NCBI GenBank assembly: GCA_002010305.1
Contig: MTND01000027.1
Coordinates: forward strand, 50,514 to 114,513
Length of the DNA stretch: 64,000 nucleotides
Reading direction: 5' to 3'
Origin: Archaeoglobi archaeon JdFR-42
GTDB lineage: Archaea; Halobacteriota; Archaeoglobi; Archaeoglobales; JdFR-42
Under the pieces are notes generated by a model, which had not been told where the DNA came from, made no database searches, and saw only the letters and a list, made by a program, of their open reading frames with translations. Position 1 is the first letter of the stretch; each line of letters begins with the position of its first letter. Below are positions 56,025-61,376 of this stretch, piece by piece. Made by a program: the position numbers and the translations under genes.

Positions 56025-57203
56025 ATGGGTAAGAAAGCAGAAGAATTACCCCAGTATAAACAATTCGCAGAATGGATAGAGAACAGGCATGACTATGCCA
56101 AAAAGTGGCAACAGAATAACGGTGGGAAAGTGGTTGGGTACCTATGTACATATGTCCCAGAGGAAATCCTTTACGCAGGAGGAGTGCTTCCGGTCAGGAT
56201 TCTAGGGTCCCATGAACCAGAGAGTATAACAAGGCCATACCTTCATGACATGTACTGCCCTTTCTGCCATGATTGTCTGGCTCAGGGTTTAGAGGGAAGG
56301 TTTGATTATCTTGATGGAATCATGCTTGCCCAGTCATGTCTACACTTAAGACAAGTGTTTTTCACTTGGGAAGAGCGTGTCCCTGTAGACTGGAGCTATT
56401 ACATGCATTTCCCTCATGGCGTAAATAACAATCATGCTGCTGAATATCTCAAAGGAGAGCTTGAGAAATTTAAAGTTGCTGTAGAGGAATGGACAGGCAC
56501 TACCATAACCAACAAAGAGCTGGATGATGCCATTGAAGTGTACAATAAGAATCGACAGCTTATGAAACAGGTATATGAATTTAGAAAACTTGAAAACCCG
56601 CCGATTACTGGCCTTCATGCTATGGAGATGGTTATCTCCTCACAAATGGTAGATAAAAAAGAGCATAACGAAGTTCTGGAATCTCTTCTGGAAGATTTAA
56701 AGGATGCAGAAGTGGATAGGGATACCGGAACCAGGCTTATGATCATAGGAAGTGAAGATGACGACAGGGAGTTCTTTAAGATGGTAGAATACGAACAGAA
56801 TTATTCTGCTACATTTGTGTTTGAAGAACACTGTACCGGAGCGAGGTATTTCTGGGATGAGGTAAGACCTGAAGAGGACAGGCTGATGGCTATTGCAAAA
56901 AGATATGTTAACAGAGTTCCATGTCCAGCTAAGGACTGGCCGACTTATGGATTCTATGGAAGAAGAAGATTCAATTGGATTGAAAAGTGGGTAAAAGAGT
57001 TTAACGTTGACGGAGCGATCATAATGCAGCAGAAATTCTGTGATCCCCACGAACTGGACATCCCTTCTTTGAGAGAATTGCTGGATAATTTGAACATACC
57101 CCATCTGTTCCTAGAATTTGACATAACAGTCCCTGTTGGACAGTTCAGGACTCGTGTTGAGGCTTTTCTTGAGTCTATTGGGGAGGATGATTTGTTCTTT
57201 TAG
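56025..57203 (+). CDS. Benzoyl-CoA reductase/2-hydroxyacyl-CoA dehydratase family subunit (BcrC/BzdN-like)
   Basis: GKVVGYLCTYVPEEILYAGGVLPVR N-terminal block of the HgdB/BcrC family. GAGGTG SD upstream. Confidence 0.7.
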   Translation: MGKKAEELPQYKQFAEWIENRHDYAKKWQQNNGGKVVGYLCTYVPEEILYAGGVLPVRILGSHEPESITRPYLHDMYCPFCHDCLAQGLEGRFDYLDGIMLAQSCLHLRQVFFTWEERVPVDWSYYMHFPHGVNNNHAAEYLKGELEKFKVAVEEWTGTTITNKELDDAIEVYNKNRQLMKQVYEFRKLENPPITGLHAMEMVISSQMVDKKEHNEVLESLLEDLKDAEVDRDTGTRLMIIGSEDDDREFFKMVEYEQNYSATFVFEEHCTGARYFWDEVRPEEDRLMAIAKRYVNRVPCPAKDWPTYGFYGRRRFNWIEKWVKEFNVDGAIIMQQKFCDPHELDIPSLRELLDNLNIPHLFLEFDITVPVGQFRTRVEAFLESIGEDDLFF

Positions 57204-58559
57204 GTGGTGAGAGGCATGGCAAAAGAGTTTAAAGTTGAACCATTAAAGGTATGGAATGATTTTAAGAAGTACAGAGAACAGTATTACCGAGATTATCTTG
57301 AAGCAAAGGACAATGGGGCAGTCAGGTGGGCAGGTTCAGCCTGGGCCTTTGATGCAGTTCCCGCTGGTCTTGGGGAAGACGTGTATCCACTGACAGGAGA
57401 GCCATATGGTGCAACGGTTGCGTTTTTCAAGGATTTCTCCAGAAGGGCTCTTGAGAAAGCAGAAAGAGCTGGTGTACCAAGAGATCTATGTGGATATCTC
57501 AGGAATTATTGGGGTTCAATAATGATGGACAAGTATGTTCTCACCGATGGTACCGAAGTTGAACCATTCCCGAAACCCGATTTCAATTACACCATTCACA
57601 TCTGCTGTACTCATGCAAAGTGGTATCATAGGGCTGGTGAGCTGGAAGGAGATGTACCCACTTATGCCGTAGATATCTCAGTAGGCCCTGGATATCTTCT
57701 TGACGACAGAAAAATTAACTATGTGGTTAGACAGCTCGAAGACTCCATCAAGTGGATGGAACAGATAACTGGCAGAGAATATGACGACGAGCTATTGATA
57801 AAAGCAGTGCTGGCAGAAGCAGATTCCATGTCTACATGGGCAAAAATATGTAAGCTTAACCAAAATATACCTGCTCCTCTTGAAGAGAAATCAATGTTTA
57901 CTCTCTATGCTCTACTCGTTCTTCATAGAGCCGATCCGAGGGTGGCAGAACTGTACAACAAACTGTATGAAGAGACCCAAGATAGAGTAAAGAGAGGTAT
58001 AGGCGCTATAAACAACGAACAGTTCAGATTCCTGACAGACAACCCTCCACCTTGGGCTTTCCTGAATGTTTATAGATATCTGGAAAAAGAATATGGAGCT
58101 GTCTCACTTGGGTCAGTATATACTTTTGGCTTGGAAGGTGCATGGCTTGGGATGGATGAAAAAGGAGAGACATGGAGATGGGAACCAGCTCCTACACCTG
58201 AAGAAGCTGGAGTCGAGATATCCAATCGAGAAGATGCACTGCGATGGACTGCTGAGTTCAATCTCAGGTACAGGCCGGGGTGGCAGCATCCGTACTCCCA
58301 TAAAATCAGAAAAATCGAGACCCTCCAGATGATAAAGGATTGGAAAGCAGATGCAATGATCATGCACCTCAACAGAGGGTGCGAGTTATGGGCTATGTCA
58401 GAACTCGAGGTGAGAGATTATTTGGTGAAACATAATATCCCTGTTGCTACTTACGAGGGCAACATGGCAGACCCAAGAGAATTCGATGAAGCAAGGACAT
58501 GGAACGTGATAGATTCCTTTATGGAGAGCCTTGGAATCAAGAAATTATCCAAGCAGTAA
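57204..58559 (+). CDS. Benzoyl-CoA reductase/2-hydroxyacyl-CoA dehydratase family subunit (BcrB/BzdO-like)
   Basis: 451 aa, abuts the previous gene. HICCTHAKWY and MHLNRGCE Cys contexts are typical of this family. Confidence 0.65.
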   Translation: MVRGMAKEFKVEPLKVWNDFKKYREQYYRDYLEAKDNGAVRWAGSAWAFDAVPAGLGEDVYPLTGEPYGATVAFFKDFSRRALEKAERAGVPRDLCGYLRNYWGSIMMDKYVLTDGTEVEPFPKPDFNYTIHICCTHAKWYHRAGELEGDVPTYAVDISVGPGYLLDDRKINYVVRQLEDSIKWMEQITGREYDDELLIKAVLAEADSMSTWAKICKLNQNIPAPLEEKSMFTLYALLVLHRADPRVAELYNKLYEETQDRVKRGIGAINNEQFRFLTDNPPPWAFLNVYRYLEKEYGAVSLGSVYTFGLEGAWLGMDEKGETWRWEPAPTPEEAGVEISNREDALRWTAEFNLRYRPGWQHPYSHKIRKIETLQMIKDWKADAMIMHLNRGCELWAMSELEVRDYLVKHNIPVATYEGNMADPREFDEARTWNVIDSFMESLGIKKLSKQ

Positions 58560-58565
58560 AAGGAG

Positions 58566-59345
58566 GTGATCAAATTGATTACAGCCGGTATTGATGTGGG
58601 CTCTAAATATACAAAGGCAGTGGTATTAAAAAATGGGGCAGAAATTGTTGGGTATGCTAACATAAGGACTGGAATGGATCACGAGAAATCAGCCAGAGAG
58701 GCCCTTGAAGAGGCCTTGAAAGCTGCAGGGATTAACAGAGACCAAGTAGACAAAATAATAGCAACCGGATTTGGAAAAACTTCAGTGCCTTTTGCTGATG
58801 ATGAGATATCTCAGGTAGTTGCAGCTGGTAAAGGTGGGTACTTTGCCAGACCGTCTACCCGAACTGTGATTGAAGTAGGTGCTGAAGAGTCCCGTGGAAT
58901 AAAGCTCGCAGAAGATGGTAAGATCAGGGATTTCGCTCTAGCAGATAAATGTGCTGCTGGCGCAGGCTCTTTCACAGATGCTATGGCACGGTATTTAGAG
59001 GTCCCCCTTGAAGAATTTGGGCAACTCTCTCTAAGATCCAAAGGGGCGGCTGCCATGAACGCTCAATGTGTTATTTTTGCTGAGTCAGAAGTGGTCTCTC
59101 TTGTACATCAGAACGTACCTAAAGAAGAGATCTCAAGAGCGATCCATGATGCAATAGCTGACAGAGTCGCTTCTATTGTCCGGAGAGTGGGTATAGAAGA
59201 TGATGTACTAGTAGTCGGAGGCCTTGCCAATGATCCAGGGTTCATCGACTCTCTGAAAAGAGAACTGAACACAGAGGTGTATCTGCCCGAAATTATTGCT
59301 CCTGAATACATTCCAGCTTTAGGAGCAGCTCTTATGGAGGAATAA
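58566..59345 (+). CDS. BcrAD/BadFG-type ATPase (electron-activating subunit 1)
   Basis: GIDVGSKYTKAVV, ADKCAAGAGSF and NAQCVIFAESEV (cluster-bridging Cys pair). Confidence 0.8.
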   Translation: MIKLITAGIDVGSKYTKAVVLKNGAEIVGYANIRTGMDHEKSAREALEEALKAAGINRDQVDKIIATGFGKTSVPFADDEISQVVAAGKGGYFARPSTRTVIEVGAEESRGIKLAEDGKIRDFALADKCAAGAGSFTDAMARYLEVPLEEFGQLSLRSKGAAAMNAQCVIFAESEVVSLVHQNVPKEEISRAIHDAIADRVASIVRRVGIEDDVLVVGGLANDPGFIDSLKRELNTEVYLPEIIAPEYIPALGAALMEE

Positions 59346-59352
59346 ACCTGAG

Positions 59353-60252
59353 GTGGTGAAAATGGCAGAAGCAATTCAGGAAGGAGAATACTGGAGATGG
59401 CCTGAAACAGTCTGGGTTGATGAAAGCAAGAACTGGAAGGAGGCTGAGGTAATCAGCTGTGGGATCGATCTTGGCTCTGTGAGTACACAGGCAGTGATAA
59501 TGCTAGATGGTGAGCTTTATGCTTATGCAAGCTTCAGAACTGGCTCCAGCAGTCTTGACAGCTCTGAGAGAGTTGTGAAAGCGGTTCTGGAAAAGATCGG
59601 AGATCTTAAACTTGAAGACATTCACTACATTGTCGGAACGGGATATGGACGAGTTAGTATTCCCTTTGCTCATAAAACTATCACAGAGATTGCATGTCAT
59701 GGTAGGGGTGCTAATTTTCTATATGGGCCAACTGTGAGAACTATATTGGACATGGGTGGTCAGGACTTGAAGGCCATCAAAGTTGATGAAAGGGGCAAAG
59801 TAGTCAATTTCCTCATGAACGACAAGTGTGCTGCGGGAACCGGAAGGGGTGTTGAAGTAATGGCAGATCTTCTTGCAATTCCCATTACAGAAGTGGGGCC
59901 TTTATCCCTCCAGGTCGAGGAAGAGCCAGAGCCAGTCAGTACAACTTGTGTGGTGTTTGCAAAATCCGAAGTGTTGGGTCTTATGAGGAAAGGCTGGCCC
60001 AAAGAAAGAATTCTGGCTGCATATTTCAGAGCTATGGCATCCCGTGTAGTTGAGCTACTGGAGAGAGTAGGAGTAGAAGAGGACTTTGCCATTACTGGGG
60101 GTATTGCAAAGAACATTGGAATGGTAAAAAGGATCGAGAATATGCTCGGTGTAAAAGCACTGAAACCGGACTTCGACACCCAGATTGCAGGAGCGGTAGG
60201 TGCTGCTCTGTTTGGCAGAGCCCTCTATCTTAAGGGGAAAAAGAAAAAATAA
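59353..60252 (+). CDS. BcrAD/BadFG-type ATPase (electron-activating subunit 2, with N-terminal extension)
   Basis: GIDLGSVSTQAVI, NDKCAAGTGRG and STTCVVFAKSEV. Clearly a distinct paralog of the preceding gene. Confidence 0.8.
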   Translation: MVKMAEAIQEGEYWRWPETVWVDESKNWKEAEVISCGIDLGSVSTQAVIMLDGELYAYASFRTGSSSLDSSERVVKAVLEKIGDLKLEDIHYIVGTGYGRVSIPFAHKTITEIACHGRGANFLYGPTVRTILDMGGQDLKAIKVDERGKVVNFLMNDKCAAGTGRGVEVMADLLAIPITEVGPLSLQVEEEPEPVSTTCVVFAKSEVLGLMRKGWPKERILAAYFRAMASRVVELLERVGVEEDFAITGGIAKNIGMVKRIENMLGVKALKPDFDTQIAGAVGAALFGRALYLKGKKKK

Positions 60253-60278: not shown

Positions 60279-61376
60279 GTGTGGGACATGGCAACCATTA
60301 CCATCAATGGAGATAAATATGAGGTGGAGGCAGGTTCGACCATCCTTGAGGCTGCTCTTGAAAATAAGGTGTATATTCCTAATCTTTGCTATCACCCCAA
60401 CGTTTCTTCGGCTGTAGGGATGAAACCTATTCATGAGATATTTAGAGGTAAAGAAAAATTTGAGAGTGGGAATGATGAGCCATATGAAGGGTGCGGCCTT
60501 TGTGTTGTTGAAGTAACTGGGGGAGAGATAGTTAAGGCATGCCACCAAAAAGTGGAGAACGGAATGGAGATCGTTACAGAGACAGATCAGTTAACCTCTT
60601 TAAGGCAGAAGGCCCTGATAAAAATATTCTCTCATCATCCTCATGTATGCATTACCTGTGAATACAGAGAAGGTTGTGATCGCATCCAGTGTACTTTTGG
60701 AAATCCGGTAGAAGAACGCTGTTGTGATTTATTTCCAAAGTGCGAATTGAGGTTCATTGCCGAATATGTGGGTTTGAGTTCAGATACTCCAAAGTATACA
60801 TTTGAAGATTTGCCGGTAGTGGAAGAGACTCTTTATAGATGGAACTTTAACTTGTGCGTTAACTGCACCAGATGTGTCAGAGGATGCAGAGAAGTACGAG
60901 AGGCAACTGCTCTTGGATTCATTATGCAAGATGATGCCCTTGTTGGAAGAACAGGTCCAACAGATAAAGAATCTGGCTGTAAATTTTGTGGGGTGTGTGT
61001 GGAGATCTGTCCTACTGGTGTGGTACGGGACATTAAAAAACCTCCCAGGAATAAATGGAGGGATTCCGTTCAGGATAAAATGCTTGCTCCCACAAAATCT
61101 CTCTTCGAACTGATAAAAGAAAACCTGGCCACTGTACCAGAGGCACCGGGTGTATATAGGCTATATGACGAAAATCAGGAACTCATTTATATTAAAGGAA
61201 CTCCTGATCTCAAACAGGATCTGATGGAGGAAGAAGAAATCAGAGAAGAGGCGAAATTCTTTGATTACGAAGAGTATGAAATGTACACGATGAGAGAGAG
61301 TGAACTTATCCAGGAATATTTACAGAGACATGGAAGGATGCCTCCTTTAAACGATGAGCTGGATGATCTATTTTAA
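60279..61376 (+). CDS. NuoG-like multi-cluster ferredoxin (2Fe-2S + His/Cys 4Fe-4S + 2x4Fe-4S) fused to a GIY-YIG-like C-terminal domain; likely ATG at 60288
   Basis: ITINGDKYEVEAGSTILEAA...CGLCVVEV, HHPHVCITCEYREGC, CVNCTRCVRGC, CKFCGVCVEICP. The C-terminus has PGVYRLYDENQELIYIKGTPDLK...RESELIQEYLQRHGRMPPLN. Confidence 0.75.
   Translation: MWDMATITINGDKYEVEAGSTILEAALENKVYIPNLCYHPNVSSAVGMKPIHEIFRGKEKFESGNDEPYEGCGLCVVEVTGGEIVKACHQKVENGMEIVTETDQLTSLRQKALIKIFSHHPHVCITCEYREGCDRIQCTFGNPVEERCCDLFPKCELRFIAEYVGLSSDTPKYTFEDLPVVEETLYRWNFNLCVNCTRCVRGCREVREATALGFIMQDDALVGRTGPTDKESGCKFCGVCVEICPTGVVRDIKKPPRNKWRDSVQDKMLAPTKSLFELIKENLATVPEAPGVYRLYDENQELIYIKGTPDLKQDLMEEEEIREEAKFFDYEEYEMYTMRESELIQEYLQRHGRMPPLNDELDDLF

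Follow-up and report, generated by a model that had tools for sequence, protein, structure and literature searches.

A 64,000-nucleotide stretch of the genome of Archaeoglobi archaeon JdFR-42 (assembly GCA_002010305.1, contig MTND01000027.1, positions 50,514 to 114,513; this whole stretch is called the window in the following, and all coordinates are counted from its first nucleotide) encodes an iron-sulfur (Fe-S) protein of 365 amino acids (aa) whose tail, residues ~275-365 (61101-61373), has a GIY-YIG fold homologous to the N-terminal domain of UvrC. The tail is a conserved, invariably C-terminal module, Pfam family DUF7508, of BzdV-like electron-input proteins, and the window protein is a short, flavin-less form of this family. 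On the basis of sequence conservation and gene neighborhood we propose, with a probability of roughly 0.55, that the tail is not catalytic and serves for docking to, or assembly with, bzd-type reductases, a role in which it would tie the Fe-S donor to the reductase. The gene and its parts, with the basis of each assignment, are:

60279..61376, forward strand: gene for the Fe-S protein, short BzdV-like form, 365 aa (open reading frame, Pfam and homologues)
60279..61028, forward strand: Fe-S module, residues 1 to ~250 (Pfam, invariant columns and Foldseek)
61029..61100, forward strand: linker, residues ~251-274 (gapped and poorly conserved alignment columns 320-345)
61101..61349, forward strand: degenerate GIY-YIG-fold domain (Pfam DUF7508), residues ~275-357 (profile, structure and alignment searches)
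61350..61373, forward strand: C-terminal acidic peptide NDELDDLF, residues 358-365, up to the carboxy-terminus (339-tail alignment)

A UvrC-like GIY-YIG domain at the C-terminus had been suspected in a preliminary description made from the sequence alone, and the peptides cited there, VPEAPGVYRLYDENQELIYIKGTPDLKQDL ... YTMRESELIQEYLQRHGRMPPLN, are indeed found in the translation. When the last 97 residues were searched against the PDB with phmmer, the GIY-YIG domain of B. caldotenax UvrC (1yd6) was retrieved first (E 0.0026), and the second match, aligned over the entire domain, was the N-domain of Arabidopsis GRXS16 (AtGRXS16, 2lwf). The NCBIfam model TIGR00194 (uvrC), positions 2-35, matches the tail with an E of 1.7e-4, and a comparison by hhalign of an alignment of 44 tails with 11 genuine UvrC N-domains, that of E. 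coli and others encoded in tail-bearing genomes, gave a probability of 95.7% (E 9.5e-9). The AlphaFold2 (AF2) model calculated from the 44-tail alignment (predicted local distance difference test score, pLDDT, 85.7; predicted template modelling score, pTM, 0.77) shows the three-stranded sheet of the GIY-YIG fold with helices on its flanks, in the topology β-β-α-β-α-α, with β1 at G291-Y296 (26-31 in tail numbering), β2 at L302-T308 (37-43), α1 at L311-I321 (46-56), β3 at F327-E332 (62-67) and α2 at Y336-H351 (71-86). The ten best Foldseek matches of the tail in the PDB are all UvrC GIY-YIG domains or 2lwf (E 9e-5 to 6e-3, template modelling (TM) score 0.53-0.69), and no other structure appeared below an E of 0.5. 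In the reverse direction, the N-terminus of E. coli UvrC retrieved DUF7508 as the second-best Pfam family (E 8e-4). Since phmmer, NCBIfam, hhalign, AF2, Foldseek and the reverse search with UvrC all agree, DUF7508 is a diverged GIY-YIG family.

The Pfam GIY-YIG family proper (PF01541) gave a different result. It had been named as one of the profiles to be tried on the protein, together with ferredoxin domains; the ferredoxin domains Fer2_4 and Fer4 were recovered and the profile-profile homology to UvrC is as described, but PF01541 does not match the window protein at E ≤ 1. It matches only two of the 44 homologous tails (best E 8.6e-4), and we therefore dropped membership in this family and kept the claim at the level of the fold. 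DUF7508 (PF24348) matches all 44 aligned tails (best E 3.3e-13). The window tail itself stays below the gathering cut-off of 26 bits, with 17.8 bits for residues 277-348 when the whole protein is searched, 21.6 bits for the tail alone and 21.2 bits in the genome scan; homologous tails that pass the cut-off (e.g., 29.5 bits at locus L025 and 27.7 bits at locus L062) are 40-70% identical to it. A PDB profile match to 8fje 'E8' (E 3.7e-7) was discarded as low-complexity, as it consists of four weak matches of a single helix-turn motif, E-x-x-L-x-x-Y-L-x-x-x-G-x-L-P, in a repeat protein. Matches to Aar2, YNG2 and others at E > 0.05, as well as those to Peptidase_S78_2 and DUF4144, were taken as chance.

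The comparison with the two closest structural groups is instructive. The UvrC N-domain (1yd6, 1ycz; PF01541) has the same fold (Foldseek E 9e-5, TM 0.65-0.69) and shares with the tail the motif series PGVY...IY-I/V...L-K/R-xxL, the helix start T-x-x-E-x-E and P-x-x-N. The UvrC helix between α1 and β3 is absent from the tail, where a gap of ~10 residues is found, and the domain is N-terminal on a repair nuclease in UvrC, whereas it is C-terminal on a redox protein here. The AtGRXS16 N-domain provides the best full-domain sequence-profile match (E 0.0033 over profile positions 16-96) and the lowest root-mean-square deviation (rmsd, 2.4 Å, TM 0.67). It resembles the tail in its compact α1-β3 spacing and in being joined to a redox protein that handles Fe-S clusters, and thus provides a precedent (PMC5890173) where the preliminary description had known of no characterized comparable fusion. 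The differences are that the AtGRXS16 domain is N-terminal and eukaryotic (plastid), whereas the tail is C-terminal, prokaryotic and attached to a different redox module, and that AtGRXS16 has a Glu 12 residues before the Asn, while the tail has no conserved catalytic residues. The 2lwf segment does not match DUF7508 in Pfam.

The catalytic positions were followed through 339 tails, namely that of the window and 338 further ones from three protein searches, all aligned to the 44-tail profile, with Y19, Y29, K32, R39, E76 and N88 of T. maritima UvrC as the reference. The hhalign alignment places IYIKGTPDLKQDL ungapped on IYVGKAKDLKKRL, with the UvrC Lys at G307 and the UvrC Arg at D314, so that the absence of the catalytic arginine noticed at the outset was corroborated. 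Across the family, Gly stands at the Lys position in every one of the 339 tails, and A, D, E or S is found at the Arg position, where a single tail has R or K. The first Tyr (Y19 of the GIY motif; Y293 in the window) is Y in 45%, F in 44% and I, V or L in 11% of the tails, and it is Phe in nine of the 15 closest relatives of the window tail. The second Tyr (Y29 of the YIG motif; Y304 in the window) is Y in 38%, the others having A, Q, L, F, R, K or V. The Asn position (N88) is N in 59% and otherwise D, G or E (N358 in the window). The Glu position (E76), anchored on this Asn and located 12 residues before it, is Q in 53%, K in 16% and E in 10% (E346 in the window), with a register that is ambiguous by one residue in the second half of the alignment and differs among local, global and low-mact hhalign runs; the adjoining position is F, Y or H in the family. 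The two tyrosines, Glu and Asn occur together in just three of the 339 tails, i.e., that of the window, its identical database entry and the nearest relative. The original statement that these four residues line up with UvrC is therefore correct for the window copy, with Glu anchored on Asn, but not as a feature of the family, and because the family does not conserve them, their agreement in the window copy is no sign of a working active site.

Other residues are kept. G291, G307 and P355 are invariant, L315, F328 and G352 are also under selection, and conserved polar residues are found at R/K312 (82%), R339 (93%), E340 (98%), E342 (93%) and Q345 (89%). The C-terminal D-L-[FY] motif is present almost throughout (alignment columns D98 90%, L99 99%, F/Y100 98%), and the tail as a whole, 70% identical to that of the nearest homologue, is no less conserved than the cluster-binding module (66%). 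In these alignments, it is these residues and not nuclease chemistry that selection maintains in the family.

A domain that is still a nuclease or binds nucleic acid, as in Arabidopsis GRXS16, and so links the reductase to DNA or RNA is accordingly a very improbable alternative. Its appeal lies in the four residues kept by the window copy and in the closest full-length structural match, AtGRXS16, whose GIY-YIG domain has been reported as an active endonuclease under the control of the Grx domain (PMC5890173); it is opposed by the replacement of Lys by Gly and of Arg in practically every tail, by the scarcity of the other four residues in combination, by Phe at the first Tyr in most close relatives, by the failure of the PF01541 profile and by a genomic association purely with redox and ATPase genes. 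The nucleic-acid-linked function considered in the preliminary description is disfavored on the same grounds, whereas the docking or regulatory role also proposed there would agree with the data. The window genome (99.6% complete) contains no uvrC, its sole TIGR00194 match being this tail, and there is consequently no UvrABC context for a nuclease role. The idea that the tail substitutes for UvrC was rejected, since a normal UvrC is encoded in ten of the 14 other genomes with the tail and the tail has lost the catalytic residues.

The tail is not peculiar to the Fe-S protein of this operon but a module of the entire BzdV-like family, most members of which also contain a GltD-like domain. A search with the whole protein yielded ~85 full-length proteins of ~365 aa from Archaeoglobales, Bipolaricaulia, Desulfomonile, Chitinivibrionales and others, and 58 full-length homologues representing many phyla align collinearly through the junction between module and tail. 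When one genome per species was scanned with a 12-sequence subset of the tail alignment, relatives of the tail were found in 348 species, among them members of the Archaeoglobaceae, Bathyarchaeia, Thermoplasmata, Dehalococcoidia, Aminicenantes, Acidobacteriota, Desulfobacterales, Bacillota and Planctomycetota. When 1.84 billion representatives were searched exhaustively with the profile, 662 clusters were obtained, 280 of them at E ≤ 1e-10, and among the matches listed the tail lies at the extreme C-terminus in 150 of 150 clusters; in the 338 homologues it invariably ends no more than eight residues from the C-terminus. The lengths of these 338 proteins peak at 350-399 aa (91 proteins) and 800-849 aa (107 proteins), with modes of ~365 and ~830 aa. 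At 80 loci, the tail was found on a short Fe-S protein in 13 cases and at the end of a 720-930-aa protein in 56, and a search restricted to the tail of the long form gave 742 long proteins. The reading frame in the window (60279-61376) contains neither a stop nor a frameshift, and an identical 362-aa protein (P0001, 100% identity) is recorded from three contigs. We found nothing in favor of a fusion that arose as an assembly or frameshift artefact of two genes, an outcome that the preliminary description had named as one possible refutation; with the same architecture in 58 collinear homologues, 348 species genomes and 338 of 338 C-terminal tails, its likelihood is negligible.

The long form, as analyzed by Pfam for loci L025 and L019, is composed of Fer2_4, the dicluster domain, Fer4_20, Pyr_redox_2 and DUF7508, Fer4_20 and Pyr_redox_2 together constituting a GltD-like part that handles flavin adenine dinucleotide (FAD) and NAD(P)H. 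It has the same N-terminal Fe-S module and the same C-terminal tail as the window protein, and its genes occupy the same operon neighborhood after bzdNOPQ; an 821-aa member from Desulfotomaculum copahuensis carries the UniRef name 'BzdV protein'. BzdV has been described as a 'putative NADPH:ferredoxin oxidoreductase' of the Azoarcus/Aromatoleum-type bzd cluster and is assigned to the ferredoxin-regenerating system (PMC5658619; PMC5736913), and BzdV-like oxidoreductases also adjoin tetrahydronaphthoyl-CoA reductase genes (PMC6849830). The FAD/NAD(P)H part is absent from the 365-aa window protein, which therefore cannot itself oxidize NAD(P)H. Two kinds of unusual frame were also encountered. 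On the Bathyarchaeota chromosome CP070749 (L062:8053-9288), a 411-aa reading frame with the C-terminal two thirds of Pyr_redox_2 plus the tail lies beside proC and probably represents what is left of a truncated long-form gene. Frames of 93-104 aa in the class of the window organism (G058:C3:1050-1217, G103:C18:3856-4023 and G023:C125:4892-5059) are matched by the tail profile at positions 9-65 only (E ~1e-7) and may encode GIY-YIG-like proteins that stand alone and have no relation to the reductase.

The association with benzoyl-CoA reductase-like genes that had been noted at the start holds far beyond the window. In the window, the Fe-S protein gene stands fifth in an operon of closely spaced genes and starts 26 bp after the end of bzdQ. 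The four genes upstream are of the bzdNOPQ type:

56025..57203, forward strand: bzdN-like catalytic subunit of the HGD-D family, 392 aa (TIGR03190 432.7 bits, just below the cut-off of 453.8; Pfam HGD-D)
57204..58559, forward strand: bzdO-like catalytic subunit, 451 aa (TIGR03191 496.9 bits, above the cut-off of 448.6)
58566..59345, forward strand: BcrAD/BadFG-family ATPase in the bzdP position, 259 aa (Pfam PF01869; TIGR00241 211 bits)
59353..60252, forward strand: bzdQ ATPase subunit, 299 aa (TIGR03192 438 bits, above the cut-off of 380.2)

Geoglobus acetivorans has the identical five-gene order, followed by beta-oxidation-like genes. BcrAD/BadFG ATPase genes adjoin the tail gene in all six homologue contexts examined, and at the 48 species loci with at least 5 kb of upstream sequence an ATPase is encoded on the same strand in 44 and an HGD-D protein in 40. 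The picture is sharpest in the window's own class, for which 96 genomes were available: the tail (E < 1e-37) is present in 17 of them, which are exactly the 17 with a BzdQ above the cut-off, tail and BzdQ being encoded on the same contig 1-5 kb apart in every case, and the other 79 genomes have neither the tail nor BzdQ above the cut-off. Nine genomes of the class contain other BcrAD-family activases (205-219 bits) and no tail. The truncated gene at L062, with no reductase genes nearby, is an exception to the operon linkage.

The composition of the operons varies. Long-form operons have a gene for a bzdM-like ferredoxin of ~100 aa between bzdQ and the long gene, whereas in archaeal short-form operons, that of the window among them, the tail gene follows bzdQ at a distance of 0-67 bp and bzdM is absent. 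The Fe-S gene in the window thus holds the slot after bzdQ that is taken by bzdM-like genes in the long-form operons, but a BzdM-type ferredoxin is a protein of ~90-110 aa with two 4Fe-4S motifs only, while the window protein has 365 aa and the additional 2Fe-2S and His-ligated clusters and the tail. Some bacterial short forms are accompanied by one HGD-D protein and a fused double ATPase, or by ATPases only, and in three bacterial loci the constant neighbor is the ATPase and not the BzdNO pair.

The flavin domain, the bzdM-like ferredoxin and NuoE/F-like subunits are, then, present or absent from operon to operon. Since these parts are dispensable and the reductase, especially its ATPase module, is constant, the tail most plausibly binds the input protein to the reductase. 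In the mechanism that we envisage, the GIY-YIG domain would no longer cut nucleic acid and would, together with the invariant acidic ..DDLF carboxy-terminus, act as a module for protein-protein docking or assembly. The Fe-S donor would be held on the reductase by the tail, most likely on the BzdPQ ATPase dimer and with the DDLF end as an anchoring peptide, and the bridging [4Fe-4S] cluster of the dimer would take up the electron. This bridging cluster is the accepted electron entry point of class I reductases (PMC11971306). Whether the degenerate GIY-YIG domain and DDLF form a dedicated adaptor by which the input protein is clamped to BzdPQ, the ATP-driven 'archerase' module of class I aryl-CoA reductases, is a more tentative matter, and we would place the odds for it somewhat below even.

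Several observations weigh against docking to the reductase. The first is the full-length AF2 model, which is confident including the linker (pLDDT 93.6, pTM 0.83) and has no low-confidence segment. The linker varies in length and sequence among the homologues, and its pLDDT is about 87-94; at the C-terminal acidic peptide the value falls to about 62-64 in the models of both the tail and the full-length protein. With a confident linker and tail, a domain packed on its own Fe-S module accounts for the model no less well than a tethered docking domain does, and the tail could accordingly be an internal structural or oligomerization domain of BzdV-type proteins that caps its own Fe-S module or dimerizes and does not bind the reductase specifically. 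The prediction would suggest such a fixed intramolecular arrangement, and the tail also has the N-terminal Fe-S module as a constant companion in both short and long forms. We nevertheless regard this explanation, the main rival, as less likely: in the long form ~480 residues of flavoprotein lie between the Fe-S module and an equally conserved tail, the co-occurrence with bzd genes would have to follow from the role of the whole protein alone, and the conserved DDLF peptide with its lower confidence looks like an end that binds a partner.

The second observation concerns the conserved polar residues R/K312, R339, E340, E342 and Q345, which surround the former active-site cleft and could serve for the binding of a small ligand rather than a partner. 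A degenerate cleft that takes up a phosphorylated compound, i.e., a nucleotide or a coenzyme A (CoA) thioester, and in this way tunes electron flow to the substrate or energy state would be in line with these residues ringing the former phosphodiester-binding cleft. We know of no precedent for a ligand-binding GIY-YIG domain, the tail has no nucleotide-binding motif, and exactly the positions lost are the metal-binding Glu and the phosphate-holding Arg and Lys of the nucleases, so that we consider this explanation distinctly improbable, even though the enzyme system does use ATP and CoA esters (PMC11971306). Third, T-x-R-E-S-E in the tail resembles T-[DN]-[ST]-E-x-E in UvrC, and the DDLF end may have its origin in the UvrC stretch L-[RK]-D-D-K-x-[YF]; part of the conservation may therefore be inherited structure and not a new interface. 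Finally, the window copy does retain Tyr, Tyr, Glu and Asn, and residual activity in its clade is, judging by these residues, conceivable though improbable.

The N-terminal part of the protein is an Fe-S wire of the HydA/NuoG type, with one 2Fe-2S and several 4Fe-4S clusters, and the tail follows it in frame, as originally described. Pfam recognizes Fer2_4, Fer4_Nqo3 and a Fer4 dicluster domain in addition to the sub-threshold DUF7508. Invariant columns in the 58 homologues identify C37, C72, C75 and C88 as the 2Fe-2S site; H120, C124, C127 and C133 form the His-ligated 4Fe-4S motif (the NuoG-like His/Cys motif), and C193-C203 and C234-C244 belong to the 2x[4Fe-4S] ferredoxin domain. The N-terminal modules of HydA of bifurcating [FeFe]-hydrogenases, NuoG/Nqo3 and FdsA superpose on window residues 1 to ~255 (Foldseek with the full-length model, ~253 aligned columns, E 1e-15 to 1e-13) and have the 2Fe-2S, His-ligated 4Fe-4S and ferredoxin-like dicluster motifs in common with the window protein. 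In the window protein, no catalytic domain (H-cluster or molybdopterin) comes after the module; the GIY-YIG-like tail takes its place. Four more cysteines between the His-ligated motif and the dicluster domain, C138, C148, C149 and C155 (60690-60745), are invariant in the 58 homologues and may serve as ligands of an additional cluster or metal. The translation start also deserves comment: the listed GTG start (60279-60290, MWDMATITING) is probably too early, and the true start is probably the ATG at 60288 (MATITING...), which would give 362 aa, because the N-termini of the homologues and the database protein P0001 begin there.

Further observations relate to the gene neighborhoods. In a Chitinivibrionales metagenome-assembled genome (L004:3581-9104) and in a JGI contig, the genes beside that of a short tail protein encode just one HGD-D protein (446 aa), a 572-aa fused double BcrAD ATPase, a small ferredoxin and a Fer4_5 protein; these loci are a double-cubane-reductase-like system and not a BzdNOPQ operon. 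In Archaeoglobus sp. JdFR-27 (L019:4734-9285) and at loci L020, L028 and L054, NuoE-like (148 aa) and NuoF-like (586 aa) genes precede the long BzdV-like gene, which points to an input module of the reductase that is NADH-linked and may be electron-bifurcating. The bzdM-like ferredoxins at L025:6430-6743 and L035:6430-6756 are ~100 aa long and have the sequence MxANYGYxDGSGEYxITIDTDKCDxC...AIxHSW with an unusually long insert between the cluster motifs. A genome of the same order as that of the window (G050) encodes a 366-aa short form ~0.8 kb after bzdQ. The 'ferredoxin' Ferp_1180 of Ferroglobus placidus has been reported as co-expressed with benzoate genes (PMC6500515) and may or may not be an orthologue of the window protein. 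In the window genome, no equivalog was found for the ring-cleaving hydrolase Oah (best match 144 bits, cut-off 464) despite the presence of a bzd-type reductase.

Class I benzoyl-CoA reductases perform a biological Birch reduction. While their catalytic and ATPase subunits are understood structurally (PMC11971306), the delivery of electrons to them is not, and BzdV is still a 'putative' oxidoreductase. That the domain family is catalogued as DUF7508 and the gene family annotated as BzdV-like is already known. What appears to be undescribed is that DUF7508 is a catalytically dead GIY-YIG domain, that all BzdV-like proteins share it as a C-terminal signature and that it tracks bzd-type reductases; our literature search yielded no paper on DUF7508 and none that joins GIY-YIG with benzoyl-CoA reductase. 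The analysis thus assigns a fold and a likely role to DUF7508 and adds, beside plant GRXS16, a further Fe-S redox protein in which a nuclease fold has been re-used. The same dead GIY-YIG end on BzdV-like proteins, whether short or long, offers a handle for annotation and experiment, and within one archaeal class it tracks bzd-type reductases perfectly. No new kind of system is revealed and the degree of surprise is moderate, but a testable hypothesis for electron delivery to class I reductases emerges. If the tail is indeed an adaptor, it would represent an undescribed use of a nuclease fold as a docking device for redox partners and would define the route by which low-potential electrons enter class I aryl-CoA reductases.

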